From the IMG/VR virus record IMGVR_UViG_3300029641_000003: 64,000 bases of DNA. The stretch is one strand, 5' to 3'. Source of the stretch: a virus. Lineage: Duplodnaviria; Heunggongvirae; Uroviricota; Caudoviricetes. Position 1 is the stretch's first letter; every line of letters starts with the position of its first letter. The position numbers and the translations under genes were made by a program. Shown one piece after another: positions 10,121 through 10,783 of the stretch. The notes beneath the pieces were generated by a model, which was not told where the DNA came from, ran no database searches, and worked only from the letters and a program-made list of their open reading frames with translations.

Positions 10121-10783
10121 TCACTCCACAACAAACCAGTCACAGGCCAGCAGGTCGCCAACTGAAGGCACCCACGGAACAACTACACCTTGTGCATTTT
10201 TTAAGGCGAAATAAGCACCATACGGAACGAGGTCGCCGGGGAAATATCCCTTAATGGCTTCCATTCGTGCCGGGTACTGTCCTTCAGGAACCAGCCAGCA
10301 GAATTGGTTTTCGCCGTTCCACCCACGTCGGGCAACTTTCTTGCCATCCTTCAGCCACATCAGCGCGTCAGAAAAGTCGGCTGCTTCAAGGTCGATTTCT
10401 TCTTGTAGAGTAACGATACCGCCAGCAGAAATAGTTACGTCCCTGGCTGTAATGAATGTCACCCCATTGTGACCTTCAATGCTGAGCGATACCCCATTTT
10501 CGGAGGCGTCGTTAACCCGGCTATAGCATTTTTCAAATGCTTTCTCTGGCACATAGACCAGATAGCCATTTTCAGCAGTGACGAGATATCCTCCTATTTG
10601 CGGTCGGAATTTTTCCAAGAACACACCATCAACACGAAGCGTCATTCCTTTTGGCTCAACGACTTCGATACTGCCAAAAATGGGCGCATAAGCTTCGCCG
10701 ACAATAACAATATCTTTGATTTTCGATGCCCGAATGATGCTGTGGCATTTGTATTTGGGGAACACCTGAAAAGTGCTGACCAT
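10121..10783 (-). CDS. two-domain protein with C-terminal DUF2829/Tad2-like domain
   Basis: 220 aa; C-terminal ~80 aa LKDGKKVARRGWNG ... VVPWVPSVGDLLACDWFVVE fits recalled DUF2829 signature. Confidence 0.6.
   Translation of the reverse strand: MVSTFQVFPKYKCHSIIRASKIKDIVIVGEAYAPIFGSIEVVEPKGMTLRVDGVFLEKFRPQIGGYLVTAENGYLVYVPEKAFEKCYSRVNDASENGVSLSIEGHNGVTFITARDVTISAGGIVTLQEEIDLEAADFSDALMWLKDGKKVARRGWNGENQFCWLVPEGQYPARMEAIKGYFPGDLVPYGAYFALKNAQGVVVPWVPSVGDLLACDWFVVE

Follow-up and report, generated by a model that had tools for sequence, protein, structure and literature searches.

We describe a gene in a 64,000-nucleotide stretch of viral DNA (IMG/VR record IMGVR_UViG_3300029641_000003; hereafter the window), a D6-like member of the P1 family of phage-plasmids, whose 220-residue product joins a C-terminal Tad2 domain through a stalk to an N-terminal OB-fold domain homologous to that of the phage L decoration protein Dec. 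The role that we favour, with a probability of roughly 55%, is that of a cytoplasmic Tad2-type sponge for immune signals, with the Dec-like module serving as a companion or assembly domain. The coding sequence is complete (10121..10783, minus strand, ATG start, 220 amino acids plus stop) and is exactly the open reading frame (ORF) singled out in a first-pass annotation of the window, whose quoted peptide strings are all present in the translation. A strong Shine-Dalgarno-like GAGGAAGGA can be read directly in the sequence 5 nt upstream of the ATG (10786..10794, minus strand). The protein matches PHROG 872 over its full length (E=2.9e-52), and its homologues fall into more than 120 clusters.

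We propose that the Tad2 domain is the working part of a cytoplasmic anti-defence protein. By analogy with the solved Tad2 proteins, four such domains would assemble into a tetramer, and the pockets between subunits would sequester nucleotide alarm signals from host Toll/interleukin-1 receptor (TIR) or cyclase immune systems. The ligands would be the Thoeris signals glycocyclic ADP-ribose (gcADPR) or histidine-ADP-ribose (His-ADPR), and possibly cyclic mono- or dinucleotides held in a pocket of the variable beta2-beta3 loop; with its signal sequestered, the immune effector would never be switched on. The Dec-like OB domain and the stalk would act as a companion module common to many sponge families, which may aid assembly, oligomerisation or stability rather than bind the Thoeris signal.

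The C-terminal Tad2 domain and its ligand pocket

Pfam, sequence matches to solved structures and Foldseek all place a Tad2 (PF11195/DUF2829) sponge domain at residues 130-220 (10124..10396, minus strand). The first-pass annotation had proposed a match to the DUF2829 signature, and a hidden Markov model (HMM) search bears it out: residues 136-219 align with model positions 2-73 of 73 of the Pfam family "Tad2-like" at 80.2 bits, against a cutoff of 25 (E=1.6e-22). At the sequence level the domain matches every solved Tad2: ModTad2 (9EIB/8V3E) with an E-value of about 6e-20, and HgmTad2/AcrIIA7, SPO1 gp34.65 and SptTad2 with E-values from 1e-8 to 1e-10. When the AlphaFold model was compared with the PDB by Foldseek, the first 24 matches were all Tad2 proteins (best E=1.9e-7; target template-modelling scores 0.6-0.87). 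The fold itself is present in the AlphaFold2 model, with a helix at residues 137-145, four strands, and two further helices at 172-177 and 208-212.

In published structures, gcADPR is held by W25, N26, W73, S76 and D79 of SPO1 Tad2 and by W21, N22, G23, W87, S90 and D93 of HgmTad2. HMMER alignments map these core pocket residues to W155, N156, G157, W204, S207 and D210 of the window protein, where every one of them is kept; most are invariant in 32 homologues, and the residues of helix alpha1 are invariant in the family alignment. SPO1 Tad2 (gp34.65; 8SME/8SMF) and HgmTad2/AcrIIA7 (8KBI-8KBM) thus share with the window protein both the fold and the gcADPR core of W, N, W, S and D, although both are single-domain proteins. 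The closest solved relative of residues 130-220 is MoTad2 (ModTad2; 9EIB, 8V3E), from a Myroides odoratus prophage, which shows about 43% identity in the structural alignment (E about 6e-21) and has the same short beta2-beta3 insertion (24-25 aa) and the same GWNG and W-PS--D motifs. Unlike the window protein, MoTad2 is a stand-alone protein of 89 aa, and at the pocket position following PSV it has S where the window protein has G; its ligands are His-ADPR and the cyclic nucleotides cUMP and cCMP.

The part of the domain that varies is the beta2-beta3 insertion loop, residues 166-190 (10214..10288, minus strand). Here the column entropy reaches 1.22, compared with 0.22-0.41 elsewhere in the Tad2 domain, and there are at least three loop variants; the alleles include PEGQYPARMEAIKGYFPGD, LAGSVNLHGI and PDKQGASRLTPIKHAANGELEINFDSPLA. 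The same region forms a second, cyclic-nucleotide pocket in HgmTad2 and MoTad2. In HgmTad2 a long insertion of 41 aa binds cGG/cGAMP; the window protein lacks it and has an insertion of 25 aa. In some alleles EWKG replaces GWNG in the pocket motif, and this replacement is paired with the short LAGSVNLHGI loop; such paired changes suggest alleles with different ligand preference.

Across the window, SJ46 and D6, the 91-residue Tad2 domain is identical at 91 of 91 positions and the genes differ by synonymous changes only (dS 0.14, dN 0), which indicates strong purifying selection. Known active Tad2 proteins tolerate N-terminal additions, as in the Acb4-Tad2 fusion and the 158-aa AcrIIA7. On the evidence of its residues, then, the Tad2 domain looks functional.

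A Dec-like N-terminal domain whose recognisable partners are sponges

The remainder of the protein had been described in the first-pass annotation as a ~130-aa N-terminal domain of unknown function. The fusion is real, but the region consists of two parts, a folded domain of 92 aa and a stalk of 37 aa, and the first of these is recognisably a Dec-like OB fold. In the AlphaFold model, residues 1-92 (10508..10783, minus strand) form a small beta-barrel predicted with confidence (pLDDT, the predicted local distance difference test, 90), whereas the beta-rich stalk or linker that follows, residues 93-129 (10397..10507, minus strand), which contains GVSLSIEGHNGVTFITARDVTISAGGIVTLQEE, reaches a pLDDT of only 46-52 in the monomer. 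A profile of the N-terminal domain matches a single PDB entry, phage L Dec (6E3C, E=5.6e-5). BLASTP against the Dec sequence gives E=1e-8, the two share the motif PEVGGYL…G.L.Y…AFE..Y, and the secondary-structure elements of Dec lie almost in register with those of the N-domain model. The BLASTP alignment extends into the stalk, which aligns with the start of the Dec spike segment (TARDVTISAGG against TARTITLTGAV), a weak resemblance that can be written as TAR-ITL/ISxG. Pfam returned no sponge family for the N-terminal domain, whose closest solved relative is Dec, and no tail-fibre-repeat match in the stalk of the window protein. The stalk occurs in at least two sequence variants among the alleles.

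The likeness to Dec brings with it a quite different account of the protein, in which the OB domain attaches to the outer surface of mature capsids, where the stalk forms a trimer and carries the Tad2-like domain at its tip to serve some extracellular or structural end, so that the protein is not an intracellular sponge at all. Dec is the only characterised relative of the N-terminal domain, and the order of parts is the same: an OB fold followed by a segment that is disordered in the monomer and that, in Dec, forms a trimeric spike only on capsids. Dec ends after this spike and has no Tad2 domain, and the Tad2 domain of the window protein sits where the distal tip of Dec would be. A 2025 sponge survey noticed Tad2 proteins with a "6E3C" (Dec) domain and removed them before testing; the reason was not stated, and we infer that its authors treated them as structural. 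At the positions of K30 and Y49, the two Dec residues on which attachment to the capsid most depends, the window protein has V26 and R50, which speaks against a capsid role, albeit as a weak test since the capsids differ. The Dec gene adjoins terminase genes, whereas the window gene lies in an early or maintenance operon, and in none of the contexts that we examined (window, D6, SJ46 and SopranoGao) does the fusion gene fall in a structural or late module. P1 does without the gene and D6 without the OB core, yet both make virions, and signals in the cytoplasm would be out of reach for a sponge displayed on the capsid exterior. We therefore consider display on the capsid improbable.

The wider family of the OB domain bears on both accounts. 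Word-indexed protein searches with the N-terminal domain, whether alone or as a profile, returned almost nothing, and an exhaustive HMM search was needed; run against 1.84 billion representative proteins, it gave 4311 clusters (at 50% identity) at E<=1e-3 and 1506 at E<=1e-10. Most members, Bcep22 Q6V7P0 for example, consist of the OB domain alone, typically about 90 aa long: among the 143 best hits under 500 aa, 62 are no longer than 130 aa. Their conserved positions extend beyond the hydrophobic core to H, K, Y, D, S and E residues. A Pfam scan of 81 longer members found Tad2 (13), Sequestin (PF21825; 13), Acb4 (PF13876; 5) and the Acb2/Tad1 hairpin (1) and no other family; in roughly 50 of the 81 multi-domain members the partner regions have no Pfam match. 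Sequestin is a sponge for 3'-cyclic ADP-ribose (3'cADPR) that was itself discovered through its fusion to Tad2 and Acb4. Every recognisable partner of the OB family is thus an immune-signal sponge. The domain is joined to Sequestin without Tad2 in Klebsiella phage LASTA and Burkholderia phage BCSR129, and OB-Tad2-Sequestin triples, with Sequestin at the C-terminus, occur among the relatives of the window protein (P0072, P0081, P0098 and P0099). These fusions, which involve at least four sponge families, are found in phages with unrelated capsids (myo-type phage-plasmids, Lastavirus, Bcep22-like and N4-like), a further point against attachment to a capsid.

Several members of the family deserve mention in their own right. 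SopranoGao and LASTA belong to one genus and carry different fusions at a syntenic spot of the early region: SopranoGao gp55 (L005 4986-5582) is an OB-Tad2 protein, and LASTA 00052 (L006 2486-3361) consists of an OB domain, a weak second OB-like segment and Sequestin. The pair looks like sponge cargo swapped on a constant N-terminal domain. Ralstonia phage GP4 gp05 (L008 2983-3258) is a stand-alone member of 91 aa within a head-gene cluster (portal, gp06, gp05, CsrA-like gene, gp03, major head protein). Its position would suit a decoration protein, but the published GP4 capsid reconstruction contains only gp2 and gp1, and gp05 is not part of it. We considered and rejected the GP4 cement protein as a family member, as the GP4 match is to gp05 and not to the Ig-like cement protein gp1. 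Lockin was likewise rejected as the identity of the N-terminal domain; it is described as a hexameric "cog", and its authors saw no instance of it in completely sequenced phage genomes, where the N-terminal domain does occur. Five giant proteins (P0123, of 4559 aa, P0126, P0129, P0190 and P0211) contain as many as 18 repeats whose similarity is confined to the C-terminal half of the OB domain (profile positions about 49-90), which suggests, from sequence, that the GGYL…Y…F hairpin is used elsewhere as a repeating unit too. P0023, a 306-aa protein from E. coli, has a tail-fibre repeat (PF03406) ahead of OB and Tad2 and is either a real three-part protein or the product of a mis-called start.

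A second small beta domain coupled to a sponge is known from RyR Tad, gp68 of Pectobacterium phage vB_PatP_CB1, described in a preprint of June 2026 (10.64898/2026.06.04.730250), which likewise has its beta domain at the N-terminus and a gcADPR sponge at the C-terminus. The RyR Tad sponge is an all-helical ryanodine-receptor repeat and not Tad2, and the protein is a dimer. The N-terminal domain of gp68 carries both hallmark motifs of the OB family, QYxSHKxVxA and GYLVVY…SWSP..F, and scores 30.3 bits against a 152-sequence OB profile in two segments (residues 2-18 and 36-69), the same score as Dec (30 bits); a narrower profile gives only 7.7 bits. Judging by these matches, the OB domain of the window protein is probably equivalent to the N-terminal domain of RyR Tad. 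In the crystal that domain forms a domain-swapped dimer; it has no anti-Thoeris I activity alone, and the C-terminal sponge does not need it (10.64898/2026.06.04.730250). These are the only experimental results that bear on the OB domain, and by analogy they point to an assembly role for it.

The main rival account is that the OB domain has an anti-defence activity of its own, whether as an unrecognised kind of sponge or as an inhibitor of some other defence. On this view the protein would be a two-in-one inhibitor that neutralises two pathways, in the manner of Acb4-Tad2 and Acb4-Sequestin. OB folds classically bind nucleotides or oligosaccharides, and the conserved polar and aromatic positions beyond the hydrophobic core would suit a binding function. 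Sponge-sponge fusions are documented, the discovery of Sequestin followed just this logic of a domain fused to a known sponge, and here the recognisable partners are all sponge families; like sponges, moreover, the domain most often stands alone at about 90 aa. Its dN/dS of about 0.45 (see below) indicates a domain under selection rather than junk. Set against this are the inactivity of the probably related RyR Tad N-domain when alone against type I Thoeris, with dimerisation as its role in the crystal, the deletion of the OB core in D6, and the replacement in the window allele of positions that are invariant in the wider family (Y by A70, S by V76 and S by V78), which are replaced likewise in Dec. 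We regard a second inhibitory activity as possible but doubtful. Also unlikely, and put forward here only tentatively, is a broader idea in which the OB domain is an unrecognised and widespread anti-defence module: it might constitute a sponge family of its own, or it might bind the capsid or trigger and so hold sponges at, or mask, the phage component to which TIR or cyclase sensors respond, with phage L Dec as a derived structural offshoot.

Alleles, operon and genomic context

The OB and Tad2 parts of the gene differ in their divergence between alleles. Between the window (10124-10783) and SJ46 (L001 4974-5651) the OB domain is 54% identical, with dS 0.73 and dN 0.33, a ratio of about 0.45. 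Compared with the identity of the Tad2 domain in the same pair, these values imply that the gene is mosaic, with recombination near residue 93. In D6, orf114 (L004 4204-4644) encodes the first 20 residues of the OB domain followed by the stalk and the identical Tad2 domain; a natural in-frame deletion has removed the OB core, and the phage is viable. P0054, from related E. coli plasmids (the equivalent of window 10124-11292), goes further: OB domain and stalk are deleted and the dUTPase is fused in frame to Tad2 in a protein of 241 aa, known from 15 member sequences and from 4 contigs, the longest of 88 kb. The OB-Tad2 gene is present in 259 PLSDB plasmids, 255 of them non-mobilizable, where it is annotated as a DUF2829 protein. 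Its public orthologues are SJ46 J46_0048, D6 orf114 and WP_181479351.1 of the Escherichia marmotae plasmid pRHBSTW-00605_3, all with the identical Tad2 domain; over the 5.3 kb surrounding the gene, the window is 98% identical in DNA to this plasmid and 82% identical to phage D6.

In the window the gene is the fifth of seven on the same strand, separated by overlaps or gaps of a few bases except for about 70 bp after the recombinase gene. The order is Cre/Dre-like recombinase, two small ORFs, dUTPase, OB-Tad2, IsaA-like gene and PacB paralogue. The string opens with the tyrosine recombinase (12191..13219, minus strand; PF00589 and PF02899, with a dre/cre-like annotation in D6). Immediately upstream of the OB-Tad2 gene lies the dUTPase gene, dut (10798..11292, minus strand; PF00692 E=3.5e-13; PHROG 135 E=1.7e-61), whose stop codon is 14 nt from the OB-Tad2 start. 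The last gene (8221..9327, minus strand) encodes a paralogue of the ATPase half of the PacB-like large terminase of the window, 34% identical over 258 aa to that terminase (ORF 14676-16184) and matching PHROG 2, "terminase large subunit", at E=5e-7. An operon with a dUTPase and a terminase-like ATPase had already been proposed in the first-pass annotation, and both neighbours proved to be what it had called them. The Walker motifs of the 368-aa PacB paralogue look degenerate (Walker A TGIGHKS vs GHGTGKS; Walker B IIVMDAA vs LILDEAS). D6 lacks the paralogue; a small pdcA-like gene is all that occupies its place there.

Downstream of OB-Tad2, the IsaA-like protein (9308..10114, minus strand) is 47% identical to SJ46 IsaA (E=5e-84) and is annotated in D6 as "similar to P1 gene isaA"; it has no match in Pfam or the PDB. 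This gene directly follows OB-Tad2 in D6-like and SJ46-like contexts (the window; L001 5658-6440; L002 7570-8532), whereas P1 has isaA and no OB-Tad2 gene. We rejected the idea that P1 IsaA and IsaB are IS1-split remnants of the OB-Tad2 gene: IsaA of P1 is homologous to the product of the gene downstream of it, IsaB is no relative, and OB-Tad2 is simply missing from P1.

The closeness of the gene to dut would also fit an accessory of nucleotide metabolism, in which the DUF2829 domain works with the dUTPase, by binding a deoxynucleotide or regulating dut, and plays no part in immunity. Besides the 14-nt spacing, the natural dUTPase::Tad2 fusion of P0054 and a DUF2829 match that abuts the dUTPase gene in Bacillus phage Shanette are in its favour. 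In SJ46-type phages, however, the gene with the identical Tad2 domain follows ssb and precedes isaA, and there is no dut nearby, which makes a dUTPase-linked role unlikely; in addition, every DUF2829 protein studied biochemically binds immune signalling nucleotides, and the pocket residues for such ligands are kept in the window protein. A purely metabolic function is the least credible of the accounts considered here, and we give it very little weight.

For the immune-signal sponge that we favour, the neighbourhood suggests co-transcription with the genes for IsaA, dUTPase and the recombinase, in what would be an operon of early or maintenance type on a D6-like phage-plasmid. A scan for consensus sites found a sigma-70-type promoter-like site upstream of the recombinase gene (TTGGCA-16-TATAAT, 11/12; 13363..13390, minus strand), a candidate promoter of the seven-gene string. 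The ssb position taken by the gene in SJ46-type phages belongs, in P1, to a C1-controlled early operon, and in SopranoGao the OB-Tad2 gene lies among early regulator genes. A search of the whole window revealed neither a P1-type C1 operator nor an Lpa late-promoter motif; D6-type elements may use other sequences, and so the missing P1 motifs do not date expression.

Weighing the sponge reading and what it would mean

Four lines of evidence argue for a companion role of the OB domain beside a Tad2 sponge: its recognisable partners belong to four sponge families, it occurs in OB-Sequestin and triple fusions, it is probably related to the N-terminal domain of RyR Tad, and its core is deleted in D6. 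The published fusions Acb4-Tad2 (Pasteurella phage Pm86), Tad2-Sequestin and Acb4-Sequestin (Ab09 gp59) likewise combine a sponge with a second small oligomerising domain; in those proteins both halves are proven sponges, whereas in the window protein the C-terminal domain alone belongs to a verified sponge family.

Several points weigh against our interpretation. Compared with SPO1 Tad2 and HgmTad2, secondary contacts of the pocket are changed (T78/T92 to G209 and H71 to V202, with further changes of T65 to N196 and D67 to Q198). The residues thus do not single out a ligand, since these contacts differ and MoTad2, the nearest relative, binds His-ADPR and cUMP and not 3'cADPR. The monomer model does not inform the predicted tetramer, and the attached stalk is possibly trimer-forming. 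RyR Tad is linked to the OB family by a match of 30 bits, to a shortened domain from which the middle strands are missing, and the inactivity of the RyR Tad N-domain is reported for type I Thoeris only (10.64898/2026.06.04.730250). The candidate promoter is a consensus match only, and Dec-OB/Tad2 fusions were left out of one large Tad2 survey before testing.

Much of this was known before. The Tad2 family has been described, the protein is publicly annotated as DUF2829 in hundreds of plasmids, multi-domain sponge fusions have been published, and the architecture itself was seen in the 2025 survey. It follows that the "possible new anti-defence effector" of the first-pass annotation is not a new effector class, although the anti-defence reading is a reasonable one, given the conserved pocket residues. 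What we add concerns the partner domain, which is a homologue of Dec, belongs to a very large family whose detectable partners are exclusively sponges, and is probably equivalent to the N-terminal domain of RyR Tad.

Should the C-terminal domain have the predicted activity, a signal sponge would be part of the gene content of P1/D6-type phage-plasmids in Escherichia, Salmonella, Klebsiella and Shigella, which bears on their persistence in hosts with Thoeris, CBASS (cyclic-oligonucleotide-based antiphage signalling system) or Pycsar defences and on P1-like vectors and phages. The N-terminal domain is a Dec homologue common to Tad2, Sequestin, Acb4, Acb2/Tad1 and probably RyR Tad proteins that has been set aside in published screens. 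Its role would tell whether sponges need a common helper, and whether immune evasion has a further layer in a large family of small phage proteins.

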